A stretch of 64,000 nucleotides of DNA. Origin: Nitrospirota bacterium. Its GTDB lineage: Bacteria; Nitrospirota; Thermodesulfovibrionia; Thermodesulfovibrionales; JdFR-85. Numbering within the stretch: the stretch's first letter is position 1; each line of letters starts with the position of its first letter. The notes under the pieces are model-generated. The model saw only the letters and a program-made list of their open reading frames with translations, was not told the origin of the DNA and did no database searches. The DNA is taken from NCBI GenBank assembly GCA_035873375.1, contig JAYWMQ010000006.1, positions 135,706 to 199,705 on the forward strand, in the 5' to 3' direction. This document shows positions 25,053-48,083 of this stretch, piece by piece. The position numbers and the translations under genes are program-made.

Positions 25053-25442
25053 TTACTCGGCTTTCTCCGCCACCACACTGAAATTCCTGACCCCGGCAAG
25101 CCTCACCTCGTCAATCACCTTCATAAGCAGGCCGACACTTGCATCCCTGTCTGCCTTTATCCTCAGGGAATCCTTTGCCCCCTCCCTCACAACCTCCTGA
25201 AGCCCTGTCAGACTCACCTCCCTGTCCATAAAGAGAATCCTGCCTGAACGTGTGATTGTTATTGTCTTTATTGTTTCCTGCCCTGTGGCAGCGGTCTTTG
25301 ATTCGGGCAGTTTTATCTTTACAACCGGCTCCCGCACCAGGCTGGAGGTGAGCATGAAGAACAGGAGCAGCAGGAAGACCACATCCACCAAAGGTGCAAT
25401 GTTCATGTGTGAATGACTGTACCTTTTCCGCTCAAACTCCAT
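25053..25442 (-). CDS. exbD: Biopolymer transporter ExbD/TolR
   Basis: NIAPLVDVVFLLLLFFM, IKADR. Confidence 0.92.
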   Translation of the reverse strand: MEFERKRYSHSHMNIAPLVDVVFLLLLFFMLTSSLVREPVVKIKLPESKTAATGQETIKTITITRSGRILFMDREVSLTGLQEVVREGAKDSLRIKADRDASVGLLMKVIDEVRLAGVRNFSVVAEKAE

Positions 25443-25974
25443 CCCTGCACCTCATATAAAGGCTTATGGTTATCTCCTTCAGGAGGAATGCTATATCGTC
25501 GGCCTGTTTCTCCAGATAGTGGTGCCCCACACTGATCGGGATGGCCACCAGGAGTCCGGCCGCAGTGGTGATAAGGGCCTCCCAGATTCCACCGGCAAGC
25601 ATGGATGGATTTACGCTTGTACTCGTCGCTATGACCATGAATGCCTTTATCATCCCGATAACCGTACCGGTGAGTCCCAAAAGAGGTGTGATTGTTGCAA
25701 TCAGACCAAGCCAGCTGAGTCCCCGTTCCGTCTCCCTTACCTGCCTTGTGCCGACCACTGACAATTCCTGTTCATCACAGCCCACTTCCAGCCCTTTGAT
25801 GATAGGCATTAAAATCAGGGGCCTTGTCTTCAACACCTCGTTCAGGGGACGTTCGATTGATCTGAAAATTCCCCTGTACTGAATTACCTTGTTTATAATT
25901 ATTGCAAGACCTGCAACAGAGCACAGCAGTATCGGATACATCAGAAAGCCGCCTTTTAAGATAAAATCAATCAT
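25432..25974 (-). CDS. exbB: MotA/TolQ/ExbB proton channel
   Basis: PLLGLTGTVIGM, GIWEALITTAAGL. Confidence 0.92.
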   Translation of the reverse strand: MIDFILKGGFLMYPILLCSVAGLAIIINKVIQYRGIFRSIERPLNEVLKTRPLILMPIIKGLEVGCDEQELSVVGTRQVRETERGLSWLGLIATITPLLGLTGTVIGMIKAFMVIATSTSVNPSMLAGGIWEALITTAAGLLVAIPISVGHHYLEKQADDIAFLLKEITISLYMRCRDGV

Positions 25975-25996
25975 TCAGCACCTCCATAAACAAAAC

Positions 25997-26794
25997 CTAC
26001 TCACGTTCTTCAAACTCAAATTTCACATACAACAACGCCTCGGATTTTACGGGCATTCCATTTCTTACAGCCGGCCGGTACGTTGAGAGCCTGACCGCCC
26101 TGACCGCCTCACGTTCAAAGCCAAAACCTGCCTTCTCCACAACCACCACGTTGAGCAGCCGACCTGTCTCGTCAATGGTGAGCCTCAGCAGCACCCTCCC
26201 CTCTCTTCCCATCTTCCTTGCTATCCATGGATACTCAGGGAGTACCCTTCTGACAAACGCCGGGCTATCTGCCGAGCCGATCTCTGTCAGATAAGGTTTG
26301 CCGGAGAACTCACCCTGCAGTGAATCCTGAGCACTAACAGCAGAGACCGCACCCTGCTCAGAGTCCTCTGCCCGGGCGGATAACATCTCCTGAGCCAACT
26401 GATTCCGATCCTCTTCAGGCTCTGCAACCGTCTGGACTTCAGTCTCCTCTTTTTTTTCAGCAGGCCTGACAACATCTGTTTCTTCTGCCTCCGACGCCGC
26501 GTCAGTCTCACTGCTTATTGCCACGGTCTTTGTTTCCTTTTTCTGCTGAACTCTCTCTTCAGCCTTTTCCTCTACCTTTGGAGGTTTTGGTTCTTTTTTC
26601 TTCTCAACACGTTTTTTTGCCGCTCCGGAAACAGCGACCTTACGGTCACCTGCCGGGCTGACGCTGCCGTCAATTATGGAAATCTTTATATTTCCGAAGC
26701 CCTGCTCTGAAAAGTGAGTGACTGTTGCAGACAACGGGATCGAAAGCAGAAGCATATGAATCAGGACAGATATTATCACACCATAATTTTGCAT
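25997..26794 (-). CDS. tonB: Energy transducer TonB
   Basis: N-terminal TM with S..H, charged linker, C-terminal PEYPWIARKMGREGRV...PAVRNG. Confidence 0.9.
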   Translation of the reverse strand: MQNYGVIISVLIHMLLLSIPLSATVTHFSEQGFGNIKISIIDGSVSPAGDRKVAVSGAAKKRVEKKKEPKPPKVEEKAEERVQQKKETKTVAISSETDAASEAEETDVVRPAEKKEETEVQTVAEPEEDRNQLAQEMLSARAEDSEQGAVSAVSAQDSLQGEFSGKPYLTEIGSADSPAFVRRVLPEYPWIARKMGREGRVLLRLTIDETGRLLNVVVVEKAGFGFEREAVRAVRLSTYRPAVRNGMPVKSEALLYVKFEFEERE

Positions 26795-26890
26795 CTCTAA
26801 CCTTTTGCTCCTTGCAATGACTATAATGGACTATTTACGAGTTCATCATATATACCCGCCTCCAGCGACAAAACAGCGACGGGCACTGTA

Positions 26891-27028
26891 AAGGAGAGAG
26901 ATGATAAACCCTGAACGGTTTTAAGTATCACAATAGCTTCACCTGGATGGTGAAGCGTGATACTTCCCTCGGAGTCCCGACTGGATGTCGGGACGAGAAT
27001 GAGTGAGGGGTTTATCATCTCTCTCCTT
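26891..27028 (-). repeat. Structured intergenic repeat, copy B
   Basis: Perfect 21-bp terminal inverted repeat aaggagagagatgataaaccc. Internal stems aagtatcac/gtgatactt, ttcacc/ggtgaa and tcccgac/gtcggga. Confidence 0.9.
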
Positions 27029-27133
27029 AAAACCTCTTATCTCTGAATCACGGTAAGATAATGATTAAATCCTGAGATTAAAAACCTCCATTCCCCTCAA
27101 ATAACCTTTCATCACAAAATCCATACATATACT

Positions 27134-28303
27134 TCATTCCCCGCCTTGACCCCACTTCTCCCTGAACCCCAGGGCAAAGGCCCTGTAAACAAGGTCCAGA
27201 AAACTCTCTCTTCCGATTCCCCGGGACTCTCCTGACAGGGCGGTTCTGTAGTATTCCAGACGGTGATATTTCCCTGAGAGCGCAGCAGCAATCTGTGCTC
27301 CATAGGTTGAAAGAATTTCGGGCACACAACTCTTCGGCAGTATCTCCCACTGAATCTTGTCCCTGAGGTGAACTATTGCTGCAACTGCCGCTACTGTAAG
27401 CGGATCGTTGTTTATGGAATTAAAATTCCTGCGGTAAAGTTCAGCCTCTTTTTCTGAAAGATAGCCGGTAATACCTGCACACATGGTGTCCATGCTGAGC
27501 CCGAAACGCTCCAGGTGAACACGGGCAAAACATCGGGCCTCCGGAGTGAGCTTGTTTTGCAATGACAGGGTCTTTTTTATTGCCTGAAGGACCGAGCGGC
27601 CGATCAGTTCACCGAGTTTGGAGTGCTTGCCCGCCCCCGTGAGGGGGGCACCGGTGTCCAGCCTGGAGGCAATCCCGATCTGGTCCGTGCCTGTTCCCGT
27701 GGCAAGCCCATCCGAATAGCGCGAAGGCACGGCAAGTTCCTGAAGGGCCGCTGTCTTGGCCTCAGTGGCGGTTATCACTGAACGCACCATTGCCGCAGGA
27801 GTCAGTTCCCTGTTGATGAACAGCATGGTGTTAATGGTGCCGTGAGCTGCCACCGGAGCTGTCCCCAGTTTCTCAAATACACCGTTGCTTTCATATACTG
27901 AAGCCGGATCACCAATCCTGCCTGCATTCGTCTCAACTCCCCCCGTGCATACAGCAACCACCCCCAGGTCACGAAATTTTTCCGACACTATGGCCGCATT
28001 ATTCATGTTTGCTGCAGTACCAAGGGAAGCGCTCTTTTCAGGTGGAAGCCCATACCGCTCACATATAGACCTCCTGTATCCGTCCGGATCAGAGCTCATT
28101 CTCCTGTGTGATTCATGGGAGTGTCCAGCTGGTTCACACGCCTGGTGATTGTAGATATACTCCAGGTCATCCCTGAGTCCGCCGTCCACACGGCAGGTGG
28201 ATATCACCCTGTGGGGAGACAGAAACCTGACATAGATAATCTTCTCCTCCCTGTGAACCTCAATTGCATCATAGAATCTTTCCAAAAGCATATACTCCTC
28301 CAT
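27134..28303 (-). CDS. cbiZ: Adenosylcobinamide amidohydrolase (CbiZ-like)
   Basis: NHQACEP, LGTAANM, GTIN, ATEAKTAAL, TGTGTD, KHSKLGELIG. Confidence 0.85.
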   Translation of the reverse strand: MEEYMLLERFYDAIEVHREEKIIYVRFLSPHRVISTCRVDGGLRDDLEYIYNHQACEPAGHSHESHRRMSSDPDGYRRSICERYGLPPEKSASLGTAANMNNAAIVSEKFRDLGVVAVCTGGVETNAGRIGDPASVYESNGVFEKLGTAPVAAHGTINTMLFINRELTPAAMVRSVITATEAKTAALQELAVPSRYSDGLATGTGTDQIGIASRLDTGAPLTGAGKHSKLGELIGRSVLQAIKKTLSLQNKLTPEARCFARVHLERFGLSMDTMCAGITGYLSEKEAELYRRNFNSINNDPLTVAAVAAIVHLRDKIQWEILPKSCVPEILSTYGAQIAAALSGKYHRLEYYRTALSGESRGIGRESFLDLVYRAFALGFREKWGQGGE

Positions 28304-29199
28304 TACAGATATAATCTGGAGATCTCGTAGATCCCCCGTAACCGTGATACATAAAGAATATCCCAGAGATAAAGACCATAAAGTATCTTCAGCAGCACAA
28401 GGGCTGTTGTGCTCAGAAGGACAACGGAGAGAAGCACCTTTTCTCCCTTTCCAAGCTGTCTGCTTTCGGCAGTTGAGCGGGCAGCCGAAGGCTGAAAAGC
28501 CCTTGACTGAATTGAGAGTGACAGTATATTCGACCTCCTGTAGCAGTTGATAAAGACAGGCCGTATCAGCTTCAGCCAGTTTTTAAGAAGCCTTGCCGGA
28601 TTGAAAGAGAGCACCCTTGCACCCCTCATACGCATGGCAAGAATAACAGTGGCAAACTCGTCCATTATGGCCGGAATAAACCTGATGGCAGTCACTGTCA
28701 TGAATGCAAGCACATAGGGCACCCTCAATTGAAGCATGCCCGAAAGCATCTTCCCTGTATCAGTACTCCAGCAGAAGAGAAAACCAAAGGTCATCATGGA
28801 GGCAAACCTCAATGACTGGATGGCACCATAGCGGAACCCTTCACGGTAGATACTTATATCCCCTGTCCACTTACCTATCAGGGGGGTATCCATATTGACA
28901 AGGTTTATGAGCACGGTCCTTGGTTCTTCAAAGTAGAAGATGGACTGGGAAAACATCGTTCCCCATACCGTCAATACAACAAGAAAAAGGAGCAGACGCA
29001 GCTTTGACCATTCCACCCGCTCAATACCTGCCAGAACCCATGAAACAGAAAAAAGAATGATGAGAGGAACCGTATTTTCAAGCATTACCGCATAGACCGA
29101 GATGCAGAGAAGGCCAATGATCTTGACCCTGGGATCGAGCCTGCCGATAATTCCCTGACGTTCCCTCTGCCGGGTAAGGCTGCTGATACCATAGCTCAT
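28303..29199 (-). CDS. ecfT: ECF transporter transmembrane T component
   Basis: LDPRVK N-terminus, RFIP, and two Arg-containing coupling-helix motifs (AMRMRGA, SIQSRAF). Confidence 0.85.
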   Translation of the reverse strand: MSYGISSLTRQRERQGIIGRLDPRVKIIGLLCISVYAVMLENTVPLIILFSVSWVLAGIERVEWSKLRLLLFLVVLTVWGTMFSQSIFYFEEPRTVLINLVNMDTPLIGKWTGDISIYREGFRYGAIQSLRFASMMTFGFLFCWSTDTGKMLSGMLQLRVPYVLAFMTVTAIRFIPAIMDEFATVILAMRMRGARVLSFNPARLLKNWLKLIRPVFINCYRRSNILSLSIQSRAFQPSAARSTAESRQLGKGEKVLLSVVLLSTTALVLLKILYGLYLWDILYVSRLRGIYEISRLYL

Positions 29200-31122
29200 C
29201 TAACCGTCCTCCCATTTCAACCGATCGCTGAATCGCCAGCCCATAAATGTCGCTGCAAAGGTATAGAGCAGGCTGTTCACTATCAGGGTCATGTATATGT
29301 ACCAGTCAGCAAAGTAGAGTCGGAAGAGCACCATATGCAGGTAGAGCCCGGTCAGGGTTATAAATGCATCGGCAACACACAGATAGAGCGCCAGATAAAA
29401 GACAGACGGTGTATTCCAGCGGAAATTTTCTCCCTTGCGCGTAAGTCCCGACATGTAGAAGGCCGCCTCCTTTGCAACTATGCCCGTACCTGTAAATAGT
29501 ATGTCCGTCAGTTGAAACCCGCCAAACATTATGCCGTTGAGCATATAGCGGACAAGGGTCGCAAATGTGACAGTGCCGGGTCTCGGGATCGACCTGACGA
29601 GCGAGACAAGGAGTGTCCAGTAAAGCAGCTCTGAAAAGAAACCTGTAACAAAGGCGCTGAAGGGACCGAGCAGTGCCGAGACAAGGTTTCCGAATATCCT
29701 GACAGGCAGGTTTGAGACCACAAAGGTCATTGCCCCGTAGAGTGAGATGATAACCAGCCACCTGACCTTCATGCCTGCCACAATATTTTTAAACCTGAGG
29801 ACAAAGACCAGAGTGGCAGTCAGACTCAGAAATACAGCAAAGAGTGTAAATGTCCATGCAGTCAGGTTCATGGATGTGACATAGAGGGGGAACTCATATT
29901 CTGCAACAGGGAGGACCGAGCCCATAGGGATAAGCTTTACCACCCTGCGGTACTCTCCGGGCAGGGGGTCAGAGGTTAAATAAACAGGCATCACCACCCG
30001 TGTCTTTTCTCCGGGCAGAAGCATGGCTGTCACAGTGACGGCCGTCTCCTTTGTCCCGCCGGTCAGCAAGTCCGGCGGTCTGAATGCCTCAGGCGTGATG
30101 TCACGGTCTTTATAATAGATACCGGAGTTGACAAGCAGTGCAATGCTGCCGGTCCCGGTGTTTTCCAGGACAAGGCTCTGATATGTAAAGGGATGATTGT
30201 AGTCAATATACTTTGGCTCAACCCCGAAAAAACGTCCGAGTTTCCGAAATACAGCGGGCTGTATGTATAGCGTGTCTTCTGCATACCGCCTGAGGGCTAT
30301 ACCGCGAATACCTACAGGTATTGATGTCTTTACAAGCCTTATTGTCTCCCCTGCTGATTCCTGTTTAACGACCTTGATGGTCACATCCCTGCTGAAGAAA
30401 GACTCCCTGCCTCCAGCTCCTTTCAAGGTAATGCCTGCATGGAGACGATACTTCCCTTCACCCGGCACCTGTATGCTGAAGGGGAGATAAAACCTCTCAT
30501 AAGCAACGGAGAGGGTTGTTCTGAAGTATATTACGGTCTCTTCTTCCCTGAAGACGACTCTCGTGTCACGGTTTTGCGGAAAAGCCGCAACCTTTACCCC
30601 TGCAGGGATGGTGACACTGCCTGTAATGATGGTCTCATCCTGCTGATATGTGGTAATGATAACGGCAGAGGTCAGTTCATTATTCTCAACTGCCGTGCTT
30701 AAAGCCTGCATCTCATTTTCAAATACCATGCCACCAGCCTGTTCAGCCATTGAGGTGAACGGGGCTGAAAACTGGACAGCAACAGCATAGTCATTATCCG
30801 GAGATTTTTCCTTTATATCCATAGTTCCCTGATTGCTTATGAGCCTGAATCTGTAGGTTGTGTTACTCTTCCAGTCAAAGGCAAGCCAGAGGTTCCCTTT
30901 CTTTATGTTGTTCAGGGACTGAGAGACGATCACACCTTCCGGACCCTGAATCCCGATAGACTTAAGTCTCAGCGGAGAGCTGAAAAACAGCCATGCACCA
31001 TCAGGGACAAACTTCACATCTGCCTCCTGCAAGGCCTCGTGTGGTGCAAGCAGATACCATGCAGTAACGCCGGTGCCTGCAAGTAATATAATAATTATGA
31101 TAGTTTTTTTAACCTTACTCAT
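29200..31122 (-). CDS. Membrane protein: N-terminal anchor, about 390-aa extracytoplasmic domain, extra TM, C-terminal ECF S-component-like domain
   Basis: Hydrophobicity read by eye. The last ~190 aa start LVIISLYGAMTFVV, like S-component helix 1, with ~6 TMs. Lies next to ecfT. Confidence 0.65.
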   Translation of the reverse strand: MSKVKKTIIIIILLAGTGVTAWYLLAPHEALQEADVKFVPDGAWLFFSSPLRLKSIGIQGPEGVIVSQSLNNIKKGNLWLAFDWKSNTTYRFRLISNQGTMDIKEKSPDNDYAVAVQFSAPFTSMAEQAGGMVFENEMQALSTAVENNELTSAVIITTYQQDETIITGSVTIPAGVKVAAFPQNRDTRVVFREEETVIYFRTTLSVAYERFYLPFSIQVPGEGKYRLHAGITLKGAGGRESFFSRDVTIKVVKQESAGETIRLVKTSIPVGIRGIALRRYAEDTLYIQPAVFRKLGRFFGVEPKYIDYNHPFTYQSLVLENTGTGSIALLVNSGIYYKDRDITPEAFRPPDLLTGGTKETAVTVTAMLLPGEKTRVVMPVYLTSDPLPGEYRRVVKLIPMGSVLPVAEYEFPLYVTSMNLTAWTFTLFAVFLSLTATLVFVLRFKNIVAGMKVRWLVIISLYGAMTFVVSNLPVRIFGNLVSALLGPFSAFVTGFFSELLYWTLLVSLVRSIPRPGTVTFATLVRYMLNGIMFGGFQLTDILFTGTGIVAKEAAFYMSGLTRKGENFRWNTPSVFYLALYLCVADAFITLTGLYLHMVLFRLYFADWYIYMTLIVNSLLYTFAATFMGWRFSDRLKWEDG

Positions 31123-32999
31123 CAGTGAATTATATGAACCCGGTACCTTCCCTTATTCGTGCCCTTTGCATCAGTAAACGGCACCTCCACGAGCGCTATA
31201 TACCTGCCGTCTGGTGATATGTCAGCCATGAAAAAGACCGGACCTTCCGTGGGATAAAGATAGATGAGTTTATCCATACCGGATCCCTTCCTTGATGTAT
31301 CAAAGAGAGTGGCCCCAAAAAAGGATGTCATACCGCCCCTGCGGGAGCCTGCCATCCCTGCAACGGCATTAACAGTAAAGAGCCACCTGCCGTTCCTGGA
31401 GAGATAAATGCCCTGCATGGAGCCGTAGGACTTCCATTTCCATCTCAGCCTGCCGTCAAAACCAAAGGCATAAAACTGATTTGCCGCAGGATGGGGCGCG
31501 GGTTTCTGCACCTTGCCTTTTACAGCACCTGAAGGAATGGAGGTTCCGGGCAGAACAAAGTAGACAGCATCAGGCCCGACCCTGGCATAGCTTATGTAGG
31601 ATGAGACTGGAATATCCCCGATCAGGACAGGTGTACCGATCTCCCTTATCCACACGGGACTGTTCTGTTGAAATCTCTTTCCCTCTACCTTTACAGCACT
31701 CTCTGTATCGAAGAACATTCCCCTGCCGTCATTAAGCCCGATTGCCGCATACCTGCCGTCCCTGGAGAGGGCAACCCCCTGCCAGGCACTGGCCGTCTCG
31801 TAATACGGCCTCAGGGGCGGCACCCTGTACTCCCACAGGACCTCTCCTGTCCTGCCGTTGAGGCAATAGAGTGTGCCGTTTCCGTACAGGGAATCAGTGC
31901 GCTCAGGTGGACGCCATGTTGACGTAAGAAGCAGGAGTTTCTCCCCACTGGCTGAGATATCAAACCATGTAAGGCTGTAGGGAAGCGGCCTGTCCACTGG
32001 CCACCGCCATTTTATACTGCCGGTCCTGCCGTTGAACCGGTAGACCATGCACCTGTAAAGCCTCCTGCCCTCCTTGTTCCATCCATGTGTGCCGACCACG
32101 ACCACATCACCACCGGGAAGCACCTTCAACTGGTAGACACCCGGAAACTTGTATATCGCATAACGGTCATTTTCCCTCTCAGGCCTCGATGTCTCAATGT
32201 CGTCAGCCAGGCGGTACTTCCATATTTCCCTGCCTGTCATTGCATCAAGACAGTAAAGATACCCGTCAGGTGACTGCTCTCCCACATACAGCACCCTTTG
32301 TCCGTCTATCTCTCCCCATCCAATACGCTTCACCATACCCTCAGCGATCTTCCGTGAGAAGACGACTTTACCGGTCCTCACCTCAACAACCCTGAGATAG
32401 CCCTGAAAACTGCCGATTGCAAGGTATTTATTGTCTTCTGAAAATTTCACGAATGTATCAGGGGCTGTCCCCTCGTCAATGCTGAATGGAACGACCTTTT
32501 CCAGCTCCACCCGCTGAACAAGCATGGGCGAAGGCTTGAGCGGCGCGGTAACCTCCTTCACAAACCGTGCATCTCTGCTGCGCACCTCCACGCTGTATTC
32601 CTCCCCGGGGCTCCATTTAAGGGGAATGAGCAGTTTTTTGTCTGCAAAAAGCACTGTTTCTTCATCCCCTTCGCCCTTCACCCACCTGAAAACCTTTCTC
32701 CCTTTCGAGCGGAGTGTAACCATCTTAAGCCCGCTCAGCTCCACAGCAAGTCCGTCACGGACAAAATAGACCTGAACCCCTGGCTGCTCCTTTATGCAGC
32801 CCTGCACAAAAACAAGCAGCAAGAGAGAGAAAAAAAGGCTCAACCGTCTGAATGATGAGAGATACCGGGGCGCAGGGTTTGAACGGTTTTTTTCGCTGAA
32901 AGCGAAAACCTCGGAGGCAGGCAGAATGCCTGTCGAGAATGAGTGAAAGCCCTGTGCCCCGGTATCTCTCAGGGGTTCCAACTCCAGTATATCAGGCAT
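31122..32999 (-). CDS. PQQ-like beta-propeller protein, probable lipoprotein
   Basis: Hydrophobic stretch ending VQGC. Repeats such as LYCLDAMTGREIWKY, YRFNGRTGSIKWRW, LYCLNGRTGEVLWEY. Confidence 0.75.
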   Translation of the reverse strand: MPDILELEPLRDTGAQGFHSFSTGILPASEVFAFSEKNRSNPAPRYLSSFRRLSLFFSLLLLVFVQGCIKEQPGVQVYFVRDGLAVELSGLKMVTLRSKGRKVFRWVKGEGDEETVLFADKKLLIPLKWSPGEEYSVEVRSRDARFVKEVTAPLKPSPMLVQRVELEKVVPFSIDEGTAPDTFVKFSEDNKYLAIGSFQGYLRVVEVRTGKVVFSRKIAEGMVKRIGWGEIDGQRVLYVGEQSPDGYLYCLDAMTGREIWKYRLADDIETSRPERENDRYAIYKFPGVYQLKVLPGGDVVVVGTHGWNKEGRRLYRCMVYRFNGRTGSIKWRWPVDRPLPYSLTWFDISASGEKLLLLTSTWRPPERTDSLYGNGTLYCLNGRTGEVLWEYRVPPLRPYYETASAWQGVALSRDGRYAAIGLNDGRGMFFDTESAVKVEGKRFQQNSPVWIREIGTPVLIGDIPVSSYISYARVGPDAVYFVLPGTSIPSGAVKGKVQKPAPHPAANQFYAFGFDGRLRWKWKSYGSMQGIYLSRNGRWLFTVNAVAGMAGSRRGGMTSFFGATLFDTSRKGSGMDKLIYLYPTEGPVFFMADISPDGRYIALVEVPFTDAKGTNKGRYRVHIIH

Positions 33000-35900: not shown

Positions 35901-36729
35901 CTCTGGCAAACTTGGGGAGGGTGAGCCTCATTGAAAAGACCATGCAACTCAGGAGCACATGGATAATGGTCTTTCCATCCACCTGAAAAAAATTCTCCGC
36001 AACCCACTCCGGGTCCCTGTTATTCAAAATCCTGTCAGGAAACCGGTTATAAAAGCATGCAATGGGAAAGCCCCCCTGCCTCTCTATCTCGTTGACAAGG
36101 CTGTCGACAAACGCCAGGTTGCCGTCCACGTAATAACCCTGATAAAACCACATGCCTATTATGGGAGTCTTTTTATCTTCAAGCTCTTTCAGGGATGTGC
36201 CCTGTGAGTCTATGTACTCGTTAAGTGTCAGGGACACCCCTGTGCGCGGGTGATAGATGCCCTCGCAGGGCATCTTCTGCGGCGGGTCACAGGGAATATC
36301 CTCTCCCGAGAACTTTTTTATCAGACTCCTGAAGAGATTTGTCCAGTTATCCCTGCCACCGAACTTGATAAAGCGCACCATCTCATCAAAAAAATCACTG
36401 CCGTATTCTGTGGAGTACTGTGCAGAGAGCGACATCTCGTCCTCATCACCGGGCTGAATGAAGACAAAGGCATTCCGGGATTCTTCAATCAGCCGGTCAA
36501 AAAACCTGAATGATTTTCTGCCTCCATGGAGTATCACGATTACACAGTCTGCTGTCTGAAGGTGATGAGTAAAACGATCCATCATCTTTGAGTCAAAAAG
36601 GTCGTCACTGGTCCGTGCCTGCACCTCCATACGTCCGGGATACTCCTCTTCTATCCGGCGAAATGCGCTGGTCATGCTTATCATTCCGGTGCCTGTGGCA
36701 TTAAATACAACTGTCTTTATCTTTTTCAT
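32992..36729 (-). CDS. cobN: Cobaltochelatase large subunit CobN (CobN/ChlH family)
   Basis: HIGKHGSLEWLPGK, NDPGEGTQAKRR, PTGRNF, NPKWMEG; 1245 aa. Confidence 0.92.
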   Translation of the reverse strand: MKKIKTVVFNATGTGMISMTSAFRRIEEEYPGRMEVQARTSDDLFDSKMMDRFTHHLQTADCVIVILHGGRKSFRFFDRLIEESRNAFVFIQPGDEDEMSLSAQYSTEYGSDFFDEMVRFIKFGGRDNWTNLFRSLIKKFSGEDIPCDPPQKMPCEGIYHPRTGVSLTLNEYIDSQGTSLKELEDKKTPIIGMWFYQGYYVDGNLAFVDSLVNEIERQGGFPIACFYNRFPDRILNNRDPEWVAENFFQVDGKTIIHVLLSCMVFSMRLTLPKFARVYEKIGVPVLQAITLFTTHRDWKETEQGATPLDVCISAAQPEFDGILITVPVSTRDVAEQDLLTGATLLRNMPVEERIEKIVSLAGKWAMLRIKPNAEKRVAVIFHNYPPRNDRIGCAAGLDSFKSVKNILDRLKQEGYSIEREYESGDALAHEILDGVTADRRWLTPEGMAQKAADRIGSAQYSVWHEGLPEKNQRHMLKDWGDIPGELFVHEDEVMVNGIINGNVYIGIQPPRGFVEQPEKIHDPHLAPSHHYIFHYRWIRDVFKADAVLHIGKHGSLEWLPGKSLALSEECYPDISIMDLPNIYPYIINDPGEGTQAKRRSYACVVDHLIPVMTNADRYEGLAEVDTKILEYIQTKSMNPARLPVLQKEIWQLATKDNLHSDIEVSEDEAFLDFDAFVERLHSYLSEVADTAINDGLHVMGIVPEDEGLAELVTQLVRIKNGDVPSLREAIARQWGYDYDNLLQYRGQADPTGRFPTNAVAITEIHRTALEMVKVVIEGSEPLIADEGPEVRRVVEFIRDVVLPKLERTTEEIDSVAAALSGRHVLPGGSGTPTRGMVDILPTGRNFFSVDPFRIPSLTAWATGKALGDALVERHMNETGKPPESIGMVIWGSPTMRTMGEDIAEAFYLMGMKPIWNGRNGRIEGLEIIPVGELKFPRVDVTFRTSGFFRDSFPNLMELLDEAVAMVTALNEPDGKNFLRKHVLAEAEELVERGIDPEEALREASFRIFSDPPGVYGAGIPAAIDAKAWEKSEDLGGVYITWGGYAYGKGVYGEDRREVFRRRLSDISLVVKNEDSREYDLLSSDDFNAYFGGFVAAVKTVSGNYPKAYSGDASDPDRVRYRSIQEETKHIFRSRILNPKWMEGLMRHGYKGAGDLSRAVDISFHWDATSDVMEDWMYDALSEKYALDEEMQKWFKEVNPYALQNIAERLLEAANRGMWNASEEMKKRLEDVYLDVEGDIEERTDA

Positions 36730-36774
36730 TCCTCAATCCTCCTGCTGATTTCCTTACGCATATGGCACTCGATA

Positions 36775-37809
36775 TCAGACCCCTGTCTTCATACCTCTTC
36801 GGCCCTTCCCGATCTCCTCAAACGGCTGCCTGCGCATACGATGTGGCAGGGCAAGCCCTGCAGCAACCTCAATATCCTCATCCGTGACATGGGTGCGTCC
36901 ATGCCAGGCTGCCAATGTCTTTGCTGTCTTGAGGGTGATTATATCCCCCCTGTGACCATCAACTCCCGCCTCCATACAGCGCGTTGCAATAGTGAAGAGT
37001 TTTTCCCTCTCGATCTTCACTTCCGGATACAGCTTTATCGCTGACTCAATCCGCTCAGCTGTCCTCGCAGACTCCTCCTTCCACTTCAGGCAGAAGACCT
37101 CCGGCTCGTCTTCAAAGGCGATCCGCCTCTCCATTACCTCCACCCTCTCTGCATGGTTCCGGCTGCCTTCAATGCTGACGCAGAGACCGAACCTGTCGAG
37201 GAGCTGCGGTCTCAATTCCCCCTCTTCGGGGTTCATGGTGCCTACCAGCGTAAACCGGGCAGGATGACTGAAGGAAACTCCCTCACGCTCCACGGTATTT
37301 ACTCCCATGGCAGCAGCATCCAGGAGCACGTCCACTACATGGTCGTCAAGCAGGTTAATCTCATCCACATAGAGGATTCCCCTGTGGGCTGCTGCAAGGA
37401 TGCCTGGCTCAAACCTCTTTTTCCCCTTGCTCAGGGCATGCTCGATATCCATGGTCCCGACAACCCGGTCCTCTGTAGCTGAAACAGGCAGCTCCACCAC
37501 CCTCACCTTCCGCCTTACAACATCAACGCCGTTTCCATTAAAAATCTCTTCAGCACAGCCCCTGTTGTCACAATCCCGGCAGACCCTTGAGTCTCCATTC
37601 CCGGGCATCTGGTAAGGACAACCCTTTACCACATCAATCAGCGGAAGTATGTCTGCCAGTGCCCTGACCGCCGTTGATTTTGCCGTGCCCTTCTCTCCCC
37701 TGACAAGTGCTCCGGCAATATGGGGATTGATGATATTAAGGATAAGGGCCAGTTTCATCTCATCCTGCCCCACAATTGCATTAAACGGATACATGGTTCT
37801 TCCGGTCAT
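36775..37809 (-). CDS. chlI: Chelatase AAA+ subunit (ChlI/BchI-like)
   Basis: [43 protein letters not shown]. Confidence 0.9.
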
Positions 37810-39890
37810 CAGATATTCCTCCTGACTATATTTACAATGTCGCCTGCCATAAGGTCATTAAAGCTGAAATGCTCTGCCCCCAGTGCTGAGGCAAGCCTTG
37901 CAGCAAGTCCGAACCTCACCACTGACTTTTCTTCCGTATCTATCACGATAAATTTTATCCGCTTCTCCCTTGACATCTCTCCGGCTATCCGCAGCACTTC
38001 GTCCTGCGGAGAAAGACGGTTGTCAATGGATACATTGGCCCTGCCGTCCGTAACGATTATTGCTATGGGGCGTGAAGAGGTCTCTTTCACAAGATGCACG
38101 CCGAGCAGATTAAAACCCTTGAGAAGCCCCTCTGACATGGGAGTGCGTCCTCCCACAGGCATCTCGCTGAGGTGTCTTACGGCAAGTTCAACAGACGAGG
38201 TGGGCGGCAGGTTGACCACGGCCTTTCGCTGTCTGAAGGTCACCATTGCCACCTTGTCTCTTTTCTGATAGGCATCGAGCAGGAGGGAGAGGATTGCCCC
38301 CTTGGTTGCAATCATGCGTGCCTTTGCCCCCATTGAGCCGCTGGCATCAACCATAAAGACAAGGAAATTCCCTACCCTCTTCTCCCTTATCTTTCTTCGT
38401 ATATCATCCCTGCGTATGGATATGGCCATTCCTCTCTCTTTTTCCCTGCTCCCCTGGTGCGGAGCAGCAGCCCTGATGGTCGCATCAATGGCTATATCAG
38501 GATATTTATCACTCTGAATACTTTTCACAAACCTGCCGCTCTTCTGCGTTGTTCTTGTCCTCGTACGTCTGCCCGAACCACGGCGCACAAGGCGATCCTT
38601 CTCCTGCGTAATACTCTGCACCCTGAATGTGCGGCCTGGCTCAAATACCTGTTCAGTACCCCCTGACGGCTCATCCTCTTCAGAGGACGATTCAGGATCA
38701 GGAAGTCCCCTCTGATAATCCTCCTCCACACCATCCATTTCACCGTCCCTGTCCTCTCCATTTTCATGGGGCTGATTCTTTATGTCATTGTTGTCAACAG
38801 ACCTGTTTTGCCCTTGCTCCTTCTGATCATCCCCGTCACCGGAATCATCACGGTTATCAGGATCATCATGCCCGGGTGGCGGCGGGGGCGGGGGCAGGGC
38901 ATCCCTTCTGCGGTGCAGTATTGCCATACCGGCCACACGGTTTATGTCACTGACCGTTACAGCGGAGCGGCCCTCATAGGCGGCAAGGGCCCTGGCTGCA
39001 TATTTTATAGCCATGTCCGCCCTGTGACCTGCAACGTTGTTTTGCAGGCATATTTCAGAGATAAGGCCAAGGAGTCGCTGAGGAAAGACCACCCCTTCAA
39101 GTCTTTCCCCCGCACTCCTGATCCGATCTGCAATCCCTCTGTTCTCGTTGAGGTAACGGGCTGCAAACTCCACGGGATTGTTGTCATAGCTGTCCCTCAT
39201 CTCCATGAGCCGTACCCTGTTGTCAGGATCGCCCTCCCCTCTAATCTCAACACAGAGGCCGAAGCGGTCGAGCAACTGAGGACGGAGCGCCCCTTCTTCA
39301 GGATTCATGGTGCCTGCAAGAATAAATCGTGAGGGATGAAGATATGAAAGTCCTTCACGCTCCACAATATTTATACCGCTTGAGACAGCATCGAGGATTA
39401 TATCCACTAAATGGTCATCCAGAAGATTAACCTCATCTATGTAGAGGATTCCCCTGTTTACCCTGGCAAGGAGCCCCGGCTGAAAACGCCTTTGCCCTTT
39501 CCTCATGGCAAATTCAATATCCAGGCTGCCGGTGACCATCTCCTCTGTTGCATTCAGCGGAAGGGTGACAAGGGGAACCTTGATATATCCGCTTTCAGGA
39601 TAATTTCCAGTCTTGATCTTCCCTGCACATTCAGGACAGAGGAGCACCCTGTTGTCAGGATCACAGAGACACGAACATCCCCTGACCACTTTTATATCAG
39701 GTAAAAGACTCCTTAATGCCCTGACTGCCGTTGATTTTGCAGTACCTTTCTCCCCCCTGATGAGTACACCGCCGATGCGGGGCTCTATTGCATTGAGGAT
39801 AAGTGCAAGCTTCATCTCCTCCTGTCCCATGATTGCGGAGAAGGGATAAAGATAATCCTCTGTCAGTGTCCTGTTGTTATTAAACTCCAT
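37809..39890 (-). CDS. chlD: Chelatase subunit D (AAA + Pro/acidic linker + vWA)
   Basis: [16 protein letters not shown] followed by a D/E-rich linker, MIDAS VDASGSM. Confidence 0.9.
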
Positions 39891-41556
39891 TCACCACTCC
39901 TATAAATTCCTCAACTGTAAGTGCAGGCGGGGAGATTCCGCTTTTCCTTGAAAGCATGAAGGACAACGAAGGCAGAAGGCCTGCATCTTTGAGGGCCTCT
40001 TCACTGCCAAGCACCTCCCTGGCCGGACCGTCAGCAACCACACAGCCATCCTTCATAAGCAATACCCTGTTTGAAAAACGCACTGCTGTCTCAAAATCAT
40101 GCGTGCAGAAAACCACCGCCTCTATCCCGGCTTCATTTCTGATTATTCGGATCAGGTTGCATATATTCTCCTCGTTCTGCCCTGTCGTCGGCTCATCCAG
40201 CAGCAGCAGCCGCGGGTCCATGGCAAGCACCGCCCCTATCACCACCCTGAGACGCTGTCCTTTTGATAGGGCATGCGGGGGTATCCTTTCCAGTCCTTCA
40301 AGCCGAAGCATAGCGACAAGGGACCTGTTTCTTGCCATGCGCACCACTTTATCAACACCAAGATTCTTCTGGCTGAACTCCAGTTCAACCCACACACTGT
40401 CTTCAAATAACTGGAGGTCAGGATTCTGAAAGACCATTCCCACCCTGCCCGAATTTCCATGCCTGCGTCCCTTGAGACTGCTCAGTCCGTTCATTTCGGC
40501 ACTGCCTGCAACCGGCTGGTTCAGGCCTGACAGTATACTCAGGAGCGTTGATTTGCCTGAACCGTTCTGCCCCATGATCGCAATTATGTCACCACTGTAA
40601 ATCTCAAGAGAGACTCCTTTTAAGGACGGCTCCCCTGCCCCCCGGTAGGCAAAGGAGATATCCCTGAGAGAGGCAACACGTCTTTTTTTAGTGCCATTGT
40701 TTCCTGCAGGACTCTCATACCTGAAGCCCTGCTTTGATGGTTTGAGTTTAATGACTTCATCAATCAGATTCCCGGTCCACTCACTTGCCCATTCGTGGCA
40801 AACAGCCCCTGCAATCTGAACGGCATCAGGCACCTTGAGGCCAAGGGTTTTAAAAATTCCGGTATGTGCCGGCAGGTCCTTCCTGTCAATATCAAGGACG
40901 ACCCTTCCCTGGTCCATCACCATTATACGGTCGACAATCCCTATCACGTCATCCACCCTGTGCTCCACCAGGACGATGGTTATGCCCCTCTGCTTAAGGT
41001 CATCGAGACACCTGACTATCTCGGCAGTACCGGCAGGGTCGAGCTGGCTCACCGGCTCATCAAGCGCCAGCACCACCGGTCCCATGGCGAGTTGCGAGGC
41101 AATGGCAACACGCTGTTTCTGACCACCGGAGAGTCTTGCGGTCTGCCGTTCTTCAAATCCCTCAAGACCGACCTGGGCCAAGGCCTCCCCCACTCTCTTC
41201 GTGATCTCTGCAGGGGGAAGGCCGAGATTTTCAGGGCCGAATGATATCTCATCCCTCACTGTATTACAGAAGAGCTGATCATCAGGACTCTGAAATACCA
41301 TCCCCACATATTGCGAGATGTAGGGCAGGGACGAAGTGCGGGTCTCTATTCCGTTGACAACCACCAGACCCCGCATCCCACCTGCGCTCTCATGAGGGAT
41401 TATCCCACCCAGCATCTTCAGAAGCGTGCTCTTGCCGCAGCCTGTACGGCCTGTGACAAGCACGCACTGTCCCCTGGGCACGGAAAAGGAGACCTCCTGC
41501 ACTGACAGATCGCTGCGTCCTGCATATTTAAAGGAGACGTTTTTAAAGGTTATCAT
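39880..41556 (-). CDS. Duplicated ABC ATPase (ECF A-A' fusion)
   Basis: GRTGCGKST/LSGGQ/DEP and GQNGSGKST/LSKGQ/DEPT. FQSPDDQ and FQNPDLQ Q-loops are typical of EcfA. Confidence 0.9.
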   Translation of the reverse strand: MITFKNVSFKYAGRSDLSVQEVSFSVPRGQCVLVTGRTGCGKSTLLKMLGGIIPHESAGGMRGLVVVNGIETRTSSLPYISQYVGMVFQSPDDQLFCNTVRDEISFGPENLGLPPAEITKRVGEALAQVGLEGFEERQTARLSGGQKQRVAIASQLAMGPVVLALDEPVSQLDPAGTAEIVRCLDDLKQRGITIVLVEHRVDDVIGIVDRIMVMDQGRVVLDIDRKDLPAHTGIFKTLGLKVPDAVQIAGAVCHEWASEWTGNLIDEVIKLKPSKQGFRYESPAGNNGTKKRRVASLRDISFAYRGAGEPSLKGVSLEIYSGDIIAIMGQNGSGKSTLLSILSGLNQPVAGSAEMNGLSSLKGRRHGNSGRVGMVFQNPDLQLFEDSVWVELEFSQKNLGVDKVVRMARNRSLVAMLRLEGLERIPPHALSKGQRLRVVIGAVLAMDPRLLLLDEPTTGQNEENICNLIRIIRNEAGIEAVVFCTHDFETAVRFSNRVLLMKDGCVVADGPAREVLGSEEALKDAGLLPSLSFMLSRKSGISPPALTVEEFIGVVNGV

Positions 41557-41577
41557 CTGTTGTTGCCCATCCTCGTC

Positions 41578-43635
41578 CTAAAGTGAAACCCTGTAGCTTA
41601 GATACCAGGCCCGTCCGGATAATGGAAACTCCGGTTTTTCATAATAATACTCGTCAAAGATATTGTTGACCTTAAGGGTTAGCTCCTGCTGCTTTTTGAA
41701 TTTAATACCGGCAACAAGGTCAACAACAGTAAAGCCTTTATAGGTAATTTCGGGATATCCAGGTGTATACCAGTCATAATCCTTGCGGCTGCCAACGTAG
41801 CGGGCCAGCAGCCTTGTGTTGACCCGGCCGTCATCATAGCTGAGGCCGTAGTTCACCTTCCAGCGGGCAACGTTATGAATATTGTCCTCTTCTTCCCCGG
41901 GTATCTTCTCTGTTGCTTCAAAGAGCCTGGTGGCATTGGTAAAGAAACTGACAGAGCGGTCCCATTTAAAGAAGACTCCGGCATCCCATTTGAGTTCAAC
42001 CTCCATCCCTTCCATTCTGGCCTCAGCCGCATTCTCAAAAGTGGTAATATTGCCGTCCTTCTTCCGCGTGATCTTGTCGTCCACCCTTGTCAGGAAATAG
42101 GTTGTATCCAGGCTAAGCCCCCAGTCATTGCGGTCAAGGCCAACCCCTATATCCCAGGTCCAGCTCTTCTCAGGTCCGAGGTCAGGGTTTCCCTGTGTTA
42201 TCATTGTGGTGCCACCAACGATCCGCTCGGAATATCCGGCCATCTGGTAGGCATTAGGAGGCACAAAGGCCTTGCCCAGCGTGCTGTGAAGGTTCAGGAT
42301 GGAAGAGATAAAGTACTTGATTCCAAACCTTGGATTTATGGTATCAAAGTTTTCGCTGGCTGGATAAAAATCCGTCTTGTACGGGGTCTCCTTGGTCTCC
42401 ACATTGAAGTAATCATAACGAAGCCCTGCATTCAGTATGAGTCTGTTATCAAGAAACTTCCATAATGTGTCGCCAAAGACTGCCCAGTTCTCCCTTTCAT
42501 CATCAGGAGAATAAGGGGCCTTGCGGGTTCCGTCCTGTTTGTAGCTCTTACGTTCCTCCTCAATATCCTGGTAATCGGCTCCAACAGTAAACTGATGAGT
42601 CCTCCAGTGCGTTGCATTTTGAATCTGCACACCCTGCCACCTGGTGGCACTTTCGTAATTCTTGTAGGGCTCTGCAAGGACATAGGAGCCAACGCTGTAA
42701 TCATAGACATACTTCTTGTAATACTCACTGCTTTCATTGGAGGCAAAGACTGTAACCCTGCTCTCGTTTTGACCCCAAACCCTTCTTAACTGCATGTCGC
42801 CTCCGTAGCGCACAATATCCTTCCGGCTCTGCTGAAGATCACCGTAAAAGAGTGCTCCAGGCGTTTCAATATCAATTCCCTTATACAGATCACCCTTGAT
42901 ATCCAGCCTCCAGCCGGGGCTGAGGTCACTGCCGAGACGCAGCGAGCCATACCTTGTCTTGTACGAGGTTCCGGGGCGGATACCTTCTCCGTCACCCAGT
43001 TTCATGTCACTCACCTGTGTGTAGTTGCGAAGTGTCAGGTCGAAATCGAGCCAATCGGCAAGACGGCCTCCGGCAGCCAGCTTTTCAAAGTTGGTATCAA
43101 AACTGCCTCCACCCAATTCAGCAGAACCTGTGAGGGGGCCTATGGTCTTCTTTGTGATTATATTGATCACACCACCCATTGCTTCAGCACCGTAAAGGGA
43201 AGAGGCCGGCCCCTTCAGCACCTCTATGCGCTCTACATTGTCCATCAGGATAGTGGCAAGGTTGGTGGCACCGGCCGGCCGGCCGTCGATAAGGAGTAAC
43301 GAGTGCTTTGTAATCCCTGAAAACTCAGGTCTGAAGCCCCGTATGCTGATCCCTGAAAGTGCACCCGGGTACTCGATAACGTCAACATTGCTGTTCTTCT
43401 TGAGCTGTTCGGAAAGTGTATCTCCAGCAGTCGCCTTAATCTCTTCAGAGGTTATTACATCCACAACCTGGGGAACCTCTTTTTTCGGCATCTCCGTACG
43501 GGTTGCAGTAACAACAATCTCTTCCATAGCGTTAACGTCATTGCCTGTCGTGTCATCACCTGCAGACGCAGTTGTGACTATGAATAAAATACAGAGGGTA
43601 ATCAAAACAGGATACAAAAGATGCGTTGCTTTCAT
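41578..43635 (-). CDS. TonB-dependent outer-membrane receptor (B12-regulated)
   Basis: Signal peptide, TonB box EEIVVTA, plug ERIEVLKGPASSLYG, C-terminal NIFD.YY...GR.W. Confidence 0.92.
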   Translation of the reverse strand: MKATHLLYPVLITLCILFIVTTASAGDDTTGNDVNAMEEIVVTATRTEMPKKEVPQVVDVITSEEIKATAGDTLSEQLKKNSNVDVIEYPGALSGISIRGFRPEFSGITKHSLLLIDGRPAGATNLATILMDNVERIEVLKGPASSLYGAEAMGGVINIITKKTIGPLTGSAELGGGSFDTNFEKLAAGGRLADWLDFDLTLRNYTQVSDMKLGDGEGIRPGTSYKTRYGSLRLGSDLSPGWRLDIKGDLYKGIDIETPGALFYGDLQQSRKDIVRYGGDMQLRRVWGQNESRVTVFASNESSEYYKKYVYDYSVGSYVLAEPYKNYESATRWQGVQIQNATHWRTHQFTVGADYQDIEEERKSYKQDGTRKAPYSPDDERENWAVFGDTLWKFLDNRLILNAGLRYDYFNVETKETPYKTDFYPASENFDTINPRFGIKYFISSILNLHSTLGKAFVPPNAYQMAGYSERIVGGTTMITQGNPDLGPEKSWTWDIGVGLDRNDWGLSLDTTYFLTRVDDKITRKKDGNITTFENAAEARMEGMEVELKWDAGVFFKWDRSVSFFTNATRLFEATEKIPGEEEDNIHNVARWKVNYGLSYDDGRVNTRLLARYVGSRKDYDWYTPGYPEITYKGFTVVDLVAGIKFKKQQELTLKVNNIFDEYYYEKPEFPLSGRAWYLSYRVSL

Positions 43636-43671
43636 TTTTTTCTTCCTCCCGCGAGAAATTTTTAGTTTTTT

Positions 43672-43882
43672 TCCGGTCTGGACAGGTCTTCCGGCTCAGG
43701 GCGATAAGACAGTTGCGAGTTGCGGGTTCCGGGTTGCGAGTCAAACCGCGTCTCTTTCCTACTCACCCGCCTTCCCGTCATGGTGTTATCCATGACAGTG
43801 GCTTCTTTCGGGCTTTCGTTCCCTTCACGGCTGCGGGGCAGCGGGGGATTTTCACCCCTCTTCCCTGACATCCAGCCTTGTG
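43672..43882 (-). ncRNA. Cobalamin riboswitch 1
   Basis: Minus strand: AGGGAA-GGTGAAAATCC-GCTGCCCCGCAGCCGTGA...GCCACTG...GGGAAGG...GAGCCGGAAGACCTG, directly upstream of the receptor RBS. Confidence 0.93.
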
Positions 43883-44029
43883 GTCAAAATGCGTGTTTAT
43901 AAATTACTGCCTCTGTTCTCACCTCCCTTACTGTCAGATCCCTACTGTCATACTGAACTTGTTTCAGCATCTGCGTGTTACCTCTCCAAGATTTTCATAA
44001 CTTACGGTTTTTTCAGTCATGAACCGACC

Positions 44030-44806: not shown

Positions 44807-44862
44807 ATTTGTACGCCTCCTTTTTATCCTGAATCCGTTAATAAAAAGGTTCCGTCAACGTA

Positions 44863-45000
44863 AGGAAGTGATATGATAGAGTCTGAACGGTTTTAAGTAT
44901 CACAAAGGCTTCACCTGGATGGTGAACCGTGATACTTCCCTCGGAGTGCCGGCTGGATGCCGGGACGAGAATGAGTTCAGACTCTATCATATCGCTTCCT
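44863..45000 (-). repeat. Structured intergenic repeat, copy C (overlaps the nrdG stop)
   Basis: Terminal arms 25/26 complementary. The 94-nt core differs from copy B at 6 positions, including one compensatory pair. Confidence 0.9.
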
Positions 45001-47810: not shown

Positions 47811-47831
47811 TCCGCCTCCCTGGCAGTTCAT

Positions 47832-48044: not shown

Positions 48045-48083
48045 CTCTTTTCCTCCCGCGAGAAAAGATTTTAGATTTATATC

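Follow-up and report, generated by a model that had tools for sequence, protein, structure and literature searches.

The window analyzed here is a 64,000-nucleotide (nt) stretch of a Nitrospirota genome (class Thermodesulfovibrionia; 2.67 Mb, 99% complete; contig JAYWMQ010000006.1). It contains an operon consisting of a cobalamin riboswitch followed by 12 co-oriented, tightly packed genes on the minus strand, which encode a TonB-dependent receptor (TBDR) and its energizing motor, an import module of the energy-coupling factor (ECF) type, a CobN-type chelatase, and the amidohydrolase CbiZ. We examined this operon as a candidate system for the uptake and processing of exogenous corrinoids. Gene labels were checked with Pfam and NCBIfam profiles and the riboswitch with an Rfam covariance model; the features are listed below from the riboswitch downstream.

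43664-43890, minus strand: cobalamin riboswitch aptamer (Rfam RF00174; 75.3 bits against a gathering score of 31.5, E 9.5e-17; full-length, model positions 1-189)
41578-43635, minus strand: TBDR with signal peptide (Pfam Plug and TonB_dep_Rec_b-barrel)
39880-41556, minus strand: fused ECF-type double ATPase, EcfA-A' (two ABC_tran domains; TIGR04520 ECF_ATPase, 398 bits against a cut-off of 315)
37809-39890, minus strand: ChlD-type medium chelatase subunit, AAA+ plus VWA (Pfam AAA_lid_2, Mg_chelatase, and VWA; TIGR02442 "putative cobaltochelatase", 768 bits against a cut-off of 779)
36775-37809, minus strand: ChlI-type small AAA+ chelatase subunit (Pfam Mg_chelatase and AAA_lid_2; TIGR02030, 428 bits)
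36730-36774, minus strand: 45-nt gap at the site of a radical-SAM gene in relatives (tblastn comparison)
32992-36729, minus strand: CobN, the large, tetrapyrrole-binding subunit of a class I chelatase (PF02514, 1283 bits; TIGR02257 cobalto_cobN, 985 bits against a cut-off of 822)
32856-32971, no strand assigned: inverted repeat with 25-nt arms, 92% complementary, between cobN and the propeller signal peptide (repeat search)
31122-32999, minus strand: beta-propeller lipoprotein (Pfam PQQ_2 and WD40-like propeller matches only; lipobox VQGC at open reading frame [ORF] residues 65-68)
29200-31122, minus strand: 640-amino-acid (aa) membrane protein, here called the S-fusion (no Pfam or NCBIfam match)
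28303-29199, minus strand: EcfT, CbiQ-family transmembrane coupling subunit (PF02361, 97 bits; TIGR02454, 76 bits, under the cut-off of 112)
27134-28303, minus strand: long CbiZ (PF01955, 214 bits, residues 26-242)
26871-27054, no strand assigned: dispersed palindromic repeat ("repeat B"), between cbiZ and tonB
25997-26794, minus strand: TonB (PF03544 TonB_C)
25432-25974, minus strand: ExbB (PF01618, MotA_ExbB)
25053-25442, minus strand: ExbD (PF02472)

These searches bore out the original prediction of a riboswitch heading 12 mostly abutting or overlapping minus-strand genes, together with its proposals that the riboswitch controls the cluster, for which the aptamer is indeed present, and that the gene set spans both membranes, with the receptor and Ton motor, the ECF module, and cytoplasmic enzymes. 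The ATG of the first gene, at 43635, follows the aptamer after a 28-nt leader with the ribosome-binding site (RBS) GGGAGGA. Intergenic spacing ranges from an 11-nt overlap to a 45-nt gap, with the sole exception of the 339 nt between cbiZ and tonB, and scans for terminator and promoter consensus sequences inside the cluster gave no excess over shuffled sequence. The TonB_C, MotA_ExbB, and ExbD domains lie in adjacent genes, as in a TonB-ExbB-ExbD energizer.

Two repeats interrupt this layout. Repeat B, which had been counted as an element of the cluster, is instead a dispersed palindrome of ~150 nt that resembles a miniature inverted-repeat transposable element (MITE) or repetitive extragenic palindrome (REP) and has at least 30 copies across many contigs of the genome. 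Its copies are intergenic, including inside both riboswitch operons of the window and among the cbi genes on contig C61; the copy at 44843-45026 is 80% identical. Because the cbiZ-tonB gap of relatives is only 37 to 75 nt and lacks the repeat (tblastn comparison), we regard it as an insertion and not as part of the system. The inverted repeat at 32856-32971, similar to a stretch on contig C24, overlaps the first ~52 codons of the propeller ORF, and the lipobox lies downstream of them. These codons are probably noncoding, with the true start later than the ORF start: the VQGC motif follows the repeat, and propeller homologs have short, clean lipoprotein signals (seen in loci L041 and L016), which together argue for a lipoprotein with a later start.

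As predicted from its sequence, the chelatase is a cytoplasmic, ATP-dependent enzyme of the CobN type. All three kinds of class I chelatase subunit are encoded, namely, CobN, an AAA+ small subunit, and a VWA-containing medium subunit (although ChlD scores marginally under its model's cut-off). CobN passes the CobN equivalog model TIGR02257 and is the only CobN in the genome; its closest match among Protein Data Bank (PDB) sequences is Mycobacterium tuberculosis CobN (7c6o, E 1.7e-229), with ChlH (3.7e-149) and HmuS (1e-100) behind it. The Walker A and B motifs of ChlI and ChlD are intact. CobN, ChlI, ChlD, and CbiZ all lack transmembrane (TM) segments, CobN also lacks a signal segment, and all four are predicted to be cytoplasmic. 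In both ChlI and ChlD, the Walker A region is followed by a Cys-rich insert (CPYQ...CRDCDNRGC in ChlI), which may be a metal-binding finger.

The nearest described enzyme of this kind is the cobaltochelatase CobNST, which the window resembles in a large subunit that passes the CobN model, with ChlI and ChlD in place of CobS and CobT. CobNST, however, belongs to the oxygen-requiring, late-insertion pathway of corrin synthesis, while the source organism has the early-insertion pathway marked by CbiD and CbiG, so the canonical CobN substrate is not made in this cell. Chelatase genes under B12 control are not in themselves new: a B12-regulated cobN with chlID and a separate, receptor-linked "BtuS" type were recognized by Rodionov in 2003, as cited in PMC9227772 and PMC6460266, and the former shares with our cluster its control by a B12 riboswitch.

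CbiZ falls within the adenosylcobinamide amidohydrolase family (PF01955). Its amidohydrolase domain is followed by a conserved C-terminal extension of ~140 aa, an extra region that marks a subfamily of long CbiZ proteins; members are 51 to 61% identical across phyla, extension included, and are encoded beside CobN in every neighborhood examined.

The receptor and TonB of the window are the only ones in the genome by tblastn. The best NCBIfam model for the receptor is TonB-hemin (261 bits, under the cut-off), and TonB-B12 scores 146 bits. Because its matches to PDB sequences (CirA, BtuB, and PhuR) are confined to the plug domain, the receptor's cargo cannot be read from sequence.

For the inner membrane, the operon encodes the two ECF-type ATPase domains and the CbiQ-family EcfT of an ECF importer, with two Walker A motifs in EcfA-A' and two X-R-X motifs in EcfT (residues 191 and 232). 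The candidate for the substrate-capture (S) subunit is the S-fusion, which matched nothing in Pfam or NCBIfam; nor did either of its two halves, even at E values up to 10. In an AlphaFold (AF2) model built from 11 homologs (predicted local distance difference test [pLDDT] score, 74), an N-terminal membrane helix leads into about four beta-sandwich domains (residues 34-417), which are followed by another membrane helix and then by six more helices. Searched whole with Foldseek, the model recovers only immunoglobulin (Ig)-like repeat proteins. When the last 228 residues are modeled alone (pLDDT 57), the best PDB fold match of this TM domain is the S component YkoE (5edl; E 0.13, TM-score 0.46/0.52); two metal S components, NikM (4m5b, 4m58) and CbiM (5x3x), come next. 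Glu552, Asp585, and His596 are conserved in this domain. The S-fusion is likely, though not established, to be the S subunit.

The S components known so far are small proteins (~20 kDa) that stand alone and have no periplasmic domains, whereas the S-fusion includes ~400 aa of Ig-like domains and is encoded alongside a propeller lipoprotein. Its module otherwise resembles YkoEDC, the B12 importer ECF-CbrT (PMC5997447), and CbiMNQO in combining a fused or paired A-A' ATPase with a CbiQ-family T subunit, and YkoE is the best fold match of its membrane domain. The S-fusion has no sequence similarity to CbrT, CbiM, or BtuM. A full HMMER search of 1.84 billion representatives recovered 457 representative clusters at E ≤0.001 (284 at ≤1e-30), a family that has no Pfam model. 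The members, almost all 550 to 700 aa long, align from around position 245 through to the end, and the best 150 matches include no short form in which the membrane domain stands alone. Since nearly all members have this length, fusion of periplasmic and membrane domains appears to be the norm of the family.

The propeller gene is adjacent to the S-fusion gene in all loci compared. In Bacteroides, the receptor BtuB works with BtuG, a surface beta-propeller lipoprotein that binds B12, and our cluster likewise has a beta-propeller lipoprotein gene beside a B12-regulated TBDR. Membership of the BtuG family itself was rejected, as the propeller gave only generic PQQ/WD40 matches. When the N termini of the propeller and S-fusion were compared for a shared module, BLAST gave nothing and profile-profile comparison gave a weak match (probability 25%, E 8e-4) where one was expected. 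No account of an ECF module with an S-fusion-like subunit turned up in literature searches, and the importer formed by the ECF module, propeller, and S-fusion is a new, undescribed part of the operon.

The arrangement is conserved. About nine Nitrospirota metagenome-assembled genomes (MAGs) from vents share the full order (riboswitch, TBDR, EcfAA', ChlD, ChlI, radical SAM, CobN, propeller, S-fusion, EcfT, CbiZ, TonB, ExbB, ExbD), with S-fusions 69 to 92% identical, and the riboswitch is kept before the cluster in relative locus L019. This synteny, together with that of two distant contigs, argues that the arrangement is not due to chance. The cluster is a patchy, probably mobile trait. CobN-family genes of any type were found in 27 of the 151 sampled genomes of the class, and the S-fusion in 1 of the 301 sampled from the phylum, namely, the source genome itself; sampling of four more genomes from its family did not find it. 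The G+C content of the cluster (25053-43890) is 51.2%, against 46.2% for the genome, which, with this absence from the family, fits horizontal acquisition.

In one respect, the window departs from its relatives. A SPASM radical-SAM gene (~338 aa) lies between chlI and cobN in every relative surveyed by tblastn (L005, L006, L011-L016, L019, L020, L028, L037-L040), including one whose CobN is 96% identical to that of the window, which has only the 45-nt gap at this site. No close copy was found elsewhere in the source genome (best match, 33% identical), and by this comparison the gene has been cleanly lost, with the other cluster genes intact.

Outside the phylum, CobN homologs at 48 to 66% identity are common in strictly anaerobic Desulfobacterota and Chloroflexi. 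In four such neighborhoods, the core ChlD-ChlI-radical SAM-CobN occurs with a long CbiZ (388 to 401 aa) alongside, and here (Desulfobacterota, Chloroflexi, and a Joint Genome Institute [JGI] contig) it is paired with a BtuFCD-type importer. Frequent extras are an ABC-2 exporter and a soluble CN_hydrolase; the latter lacks TM segments and was rejected as the lipoprotein acyltransferase Lnt. Two neighborhoods also contain a NifH-like gene and two NifD/K-like genes of the tetrapyrrole-reductase class (L039:6305-9773, a Chloroflexi MAG; L040:2660-6102, the JGI contig).

In one rival reading, a scavenged noncorrin tetrapyrrole of the siroheme, sirohydrochlorin, or F430 type might be converted to a B12 precursor, and the SPASM radical-SAM protein beside CobN in all relatives, of a kind that includes the tetrapyrrole-modifying NirJ and AhbC, the ring-reducing class of the Nif-like trio in the Chloroflexi and JGI versions, and a receptor that scores nearest to heme receptors would all suit such a route. 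The window, however, has neither the radical-SAM nor the Nif-like genes, CbiZ belongs to a corrinoid enzyme family, and no enzyme chemistry is known for the conversion; we consider it very unlikely.

In the cultured sulfate reducer Dethiosulfatarculus sandiegensis (L041), the core adjoins a second, transport unit consisting of a cobalamin riboswitch (114 bits), a TBDR, a second cytoplasmic CobN, EcfAA', a propeller lipoprotein, a 643-aa S-fusion homolog (39% identical over the whole length, E 4e-148), and EcfT. The two CobN proteins are 59% and 30% identical to that of the window, the 30% one being in the transport unit, which led us to reject their origin by recent duplication. On sequence comparison, the window cluster reads as a fusion of these two units. 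Two distant versions of the system, one of them in this organism, carry a glycerophosphodiester phosphodiesterase (GDPD) gene beside S-fusion, EcfT, or CbiZ (L004:3013-3873 and L041:21506-22342); a possible target of this enzyme is the phosphodiester in the nucleotide loop of cobamides.

Receptor-linked cobN genes of other kinds also occur. Other Thermodesulfovibrionia carry clusters, here called type B, with the order receptor-BtuF-BtuC-BtuD-CobN-ChlI-ChlD (L017, L018, L021-L023, L025-L027, L034), in one genus with CobN split into two ORFs of ~800 and ~500 aa. We rejected these as the same system: their CobN is ~32% identical to that of the window, and no riboswitch precedes the receptor in the five loci scanned (L017, L021, L023, L025, L026). 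Loci L024 and L032 have long CobN-like genes (1290 to 1420 aa, ~29% identical to that of the window) with a receptor and a short CbiZ-like gene.

The original prediction stated that no characterization of this combination of genes was known. For the core, this does not hold: behind a cobalamin riboswitch it has already been described in Dehalobacter restrictus PER-K23 (PMC4285132). According to that report, "operon-2" (Dehre_0281-0292), which its authors regard as an augmented salvage operon syntenic with one of Acetobacterium woodii, has the order fepB, cbiZ, Dehre_0283, fepC, cbiZ, fepB, cobN, ChlD-like gene, chlI, SPASM radical SAM, and ABC-2 pair. The same source gives a 346-fold rise in RNA of the first gene under corrinoid starvation and 17- to 83-fold rises of the proteins at low B12 (CobN, 31-fold; ChlD-like protein, 46-fold; the two CbiZ proteins, 58- and 80-fold), in an organism that induces the module although its ring pathway is broken. 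Operon-2 and the window are alike in having a riboswitch, an importer, CbiZ, CobN, ChlD, and ChlI, and in both the role of the chelatase is unexplained. They differ in that operon-2, from a Gram-positive organism, has no receptor or Ton motor and uses a BtuFCD/Fep-type importer with two binding proteins, whereas the window has an ECF-type importer, a propeller lipoprotein, and a large fused membrane subunit. Operon-2 also has the SPASM radical-SAM gene and an ABC-2 exporter; the window lacks both, and an ABC-2 pair lies in another riboswitch operon of the source genome, on contig C25. The enzyme core is thus a known, functionally unexplained module: where PMC4285132, PMC9227772, PMC6460266, and PMC12583661 touch on a cytoplasmic chelatase of a salvage module, they assign it no reaction.

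One reaction with a precedent is the removal of metal. HmuS, a CobN homolog, is described as a heme de-chelatase (PMC12583661; PDB 9d26), and both the hmuYRSTUV locus of Bacteroidota and BtuS of Bacteroides fragilis (PMC6460266) share with our cluster the combination, in one operon, of a TBDR, an ExbB/ExbD-type motor, and a CobN-superfamily protein that acts, or in our cluster would act, on an imported tetrapyrrole. By analogy, the operon might harvest cobalt, with CbiZ (and amidases in relatives) trimming the imported corrinoid, CobN-ChlID removing its cobalt for the cell's own pathway, and the empty ring being exported. Consistent with this, HmuS acts within a TBDR/ExbBD operon (PMC12583661), an ABC-2 exporter is conserved in the module of D. 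restrictus, D. sandiegensis, and D. toluolica and is also found in the source genome's other riboswitch operon, and soluble CN_hydrolase amidases accompany related clusters. HmuS and BtuS, however, are exported and membrane-anchored and lack AAA+ partners, and iron is described as the inducer of the hmu locus, whereas the window CobN is cytoplasmic, keeps both ChlI and ChlD, stands behind a B12 riboswitch, and is, by the E values given above, far closer to cobaltochelatases than to HmuS. It would, moreover, be wasteful to destroy a usable corrin ring during B12 shortage when CbiZ allows its remodeling. As an account of the whole operon, cobalt harvest is therefore unlikely.

The rest of the genome's B12 equipment bears on a different explanation. 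The genome has three cobalamin riboswitches. The second, at 48074-48301 in the window (73.7 bits), heads a minus-strand unit (44030-48301) of nrdD, nrdG, and a pterin-binding methyltransferase gene. Its aptamer is 92% and its leader up to the RBS 85% identical to those of the operon riboswitch, suggesting that the entire regulatory element was recently duplicated. Placing a B12-independent reductase under B12 control is a known pattern. The third riboswitch heads an operon (C25:347-7820) for a porin-like protein, a CbiK whose N terminus has a signal-like segment, a membrane protein resembling PepSY, the ABC-2 exporter pair, and BtuC-BtuD-BtuF. Contig C25 ends in a 496-nt overlap with the start of C61, at only 91% identity, and C61 continues with cbiL, cbiD, cbiE, cbiGJ, cbiF, and cbiH (C61:1-6050); the operon probably runs on into these genes, and the assembly may hold two variants of the junction. 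In relatives L016 and L019, exbD is followed directly by a second riboswitch and the porin-CbiK-ABC-2-BtuCDF operon. Elsewhere, the source genome encodes CbiC, CbiB, CobS, CobU, three CobQ/CbiA-type amidotransferases, two B12-binding proteins, and, on contig C12, a CbiM-type Ni/Co ECF system without a riboswitch.

The cbiK, cobU/cobS, and btuFCD genes that the original prediction had proposed to look for were thus all found. Its statement that BtuFCD and ring-synthesis genes are absent stands for the cluster and fails for the genome, which has both. Its description of the cluster as self-contained is likewise overstated, since the genome has a complete anaerobic cbi pathway, CobU/CobS, and another riboswitch operon, with BtuCDF, and since the SPASM gene has been lost. 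The early-insertion markers CbiD, CbiG, and CbiK are present, and the genome does not have the profile of the late-insertion (aerobic) pathway, for which CobG and CobF were not searched for.

With this equipment, the operon could instead serve cobalt acquisition and de novo synthesis: the receptor and ECF module would import Co2+ or a small cobalt complex, CobN-ChlID would be the cobaltochelatase of the cell's own pathway, and CbiZ would be a passenger. An anaerobic ring pathway is encoded (CbiL, D, E, GJ, F, H, and C), the genome's only CbiK/CbiX homolog has a signal-like N terminus and envelope-gene neighbors, the only NCBIfam match of EcfT is the cobalt CbiQ model, and a role in cobalt transport has been proposed for TonB receptors linked to riboswitches (PMC7689651). 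CbiK indeed takes two forms in the class, as a comparison with relatives G069, G055, G064, and G012 revealed: a long one with an N-terminal hydrophobic segment and envelope neighbors and a short, apparently cytosolic one. The source genome has only the long form (C25:5100-6071) and no obviously cytosolic CbiK or CbiX. Yet the cluster-bearing relatives G069 and G055 also have the short CbiK, in G069 just upstream of the cluster, and we therefore rejected, as a general explanation, the idea that the cluster serves de novo synthesis because CobN is the only cytoplasmic cobalt chelatase. Several further observations are difficult to reconcile with cobalt uptake. In other phyla, the core is found with BtuFCD-type importers of chelates; long CbiZ and CobN occur together in every cluster examined, across phyla; a CbiM-type Ni/Co system is present elsewhere in the genome; and D. 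restrictus induces its module despite a broken ring pathway (PMC4285132). Finally, the known substrate of CobN-type enzymes is a ring-contracted a,c-diamide, and the CbiD/CbiG pathway makes no such cobalt-free intermediate. We consider this explanation improbable.

Taking these lines of evidence together, we slightly favor a B12-repressed operon for the uptake and processing of an exogenous, corrinoid-type tetrapyrrole, which would make it an ECF-based form, in a Gram-negative organism, of the conserved CbiZ-CobN-ChlD-ChlI "corrinoid starvation" module, and judge the chances of this reading to be a little better than even. What is observed is the set of parts, the order in which they lie and are conserved, and the response of a homologous module to B12; the cargo and the chelatase reaction are what we infer from them. 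A tetrapyrrole or corrinoid cargo is favored because the same core elsewhere has BtuFCD-type importers, which carry chelates and not free ions, and because CbiZ is adjacent in every neighborhood examined.

Under this corrinoid-uptake reading, the leader would open and the operon would be expressed when adenosylcobalamin is scarce. The receptor, driven by TonB-ExbBD, would bring a corrinoid-type cargo into the periplasm, where it would be captured by the propeller lipoprotein together with the S-fusion's Ig-like domains and passed to the six-helix S-like domain, and EcfT with EcfA-A' would drive it across the inner membrane. In the cytoplasm, CbiZ would remove the aminopropanol-linked tail of incomplete or foreign cobamides to yield cobyric acid, which could then be rebuilt by the CbiB, CobU, and CobS proteins of the genome, in which the genes for assembling the nucleotide loop were found. 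In the least certain step, CobN-ChlI-ChlD would use ATP to insert cobalt into imported cobalt-free corrinoids. Insertion is ranked first because CobN is orthodox and has both ATPase partners, and within this reading we give it nearly an even chance. Cobalt removal is the second named candidate because of the HmuS precedent and the conserved exporter, and it is a rather poor one; a reaction other than these two has an appreciable chance, short of that of insertion.

Several observations weigh against uptake and processing of corrinoids by this operon. With a full anaerobic de novo pathway and a separate BtuCDF in the genome, the need for another route is not obvious, and we know of no documented natural supply of cobalt-free corrinoids in this habitat. 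The receptor scores nearer to heme receptors than to BtuB in NCBIfam. The S-component assignment derives from a low-confidence model (pLDDT 57, E 0.13) with no sequence support, and a profile of the S-fusion membrane domain found nothing among PDB sequences. The propeller has no BtuG/DUF4465 match in Pfam and no BtuG among its PDB sequence matches. Finally, the 339-nt gap with its repeat could uncouple tonB-exbBD from the riboswitch.

A bolder proposal extends the corrinoid-uptake reading. The S-fusion and propeller may define a new class of ECF importer, in which a periplasmic receptor domain fused to the S component takes a tetrapyrrole from a TBDR, and a class I chelatase may act on imported rather than home-made rings, either metallating them or stripping their cobalt. 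We advance this combination tentatively and regard it as doubtful in its entirety.

Vitamin B12 and its precursors are traded in microbial communities, and the uptake proteins of many bacteria are still unidentified (PMC6072759). The operon described here bears on why strict anaerobes with an early-insertion pathway keep a B12-regulated, ATP-driven CobN beside corrinoid importers, and on the role of a 457-cluster family of membrane proteins that would replace the normal ECF S component. Since 2003, CobN has been suspected of a part in salvage that has never been shown. Because the whole transport unit and its riboswitch are present in the cultured D. sandiegensis, these questions are now testable. 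If the chelatase does act on imported rings, corrinoid salvage would gain an extra step; if it strips cobalt from them, it would be the cobalt counterpart of the heme de-chelatase HmuS.

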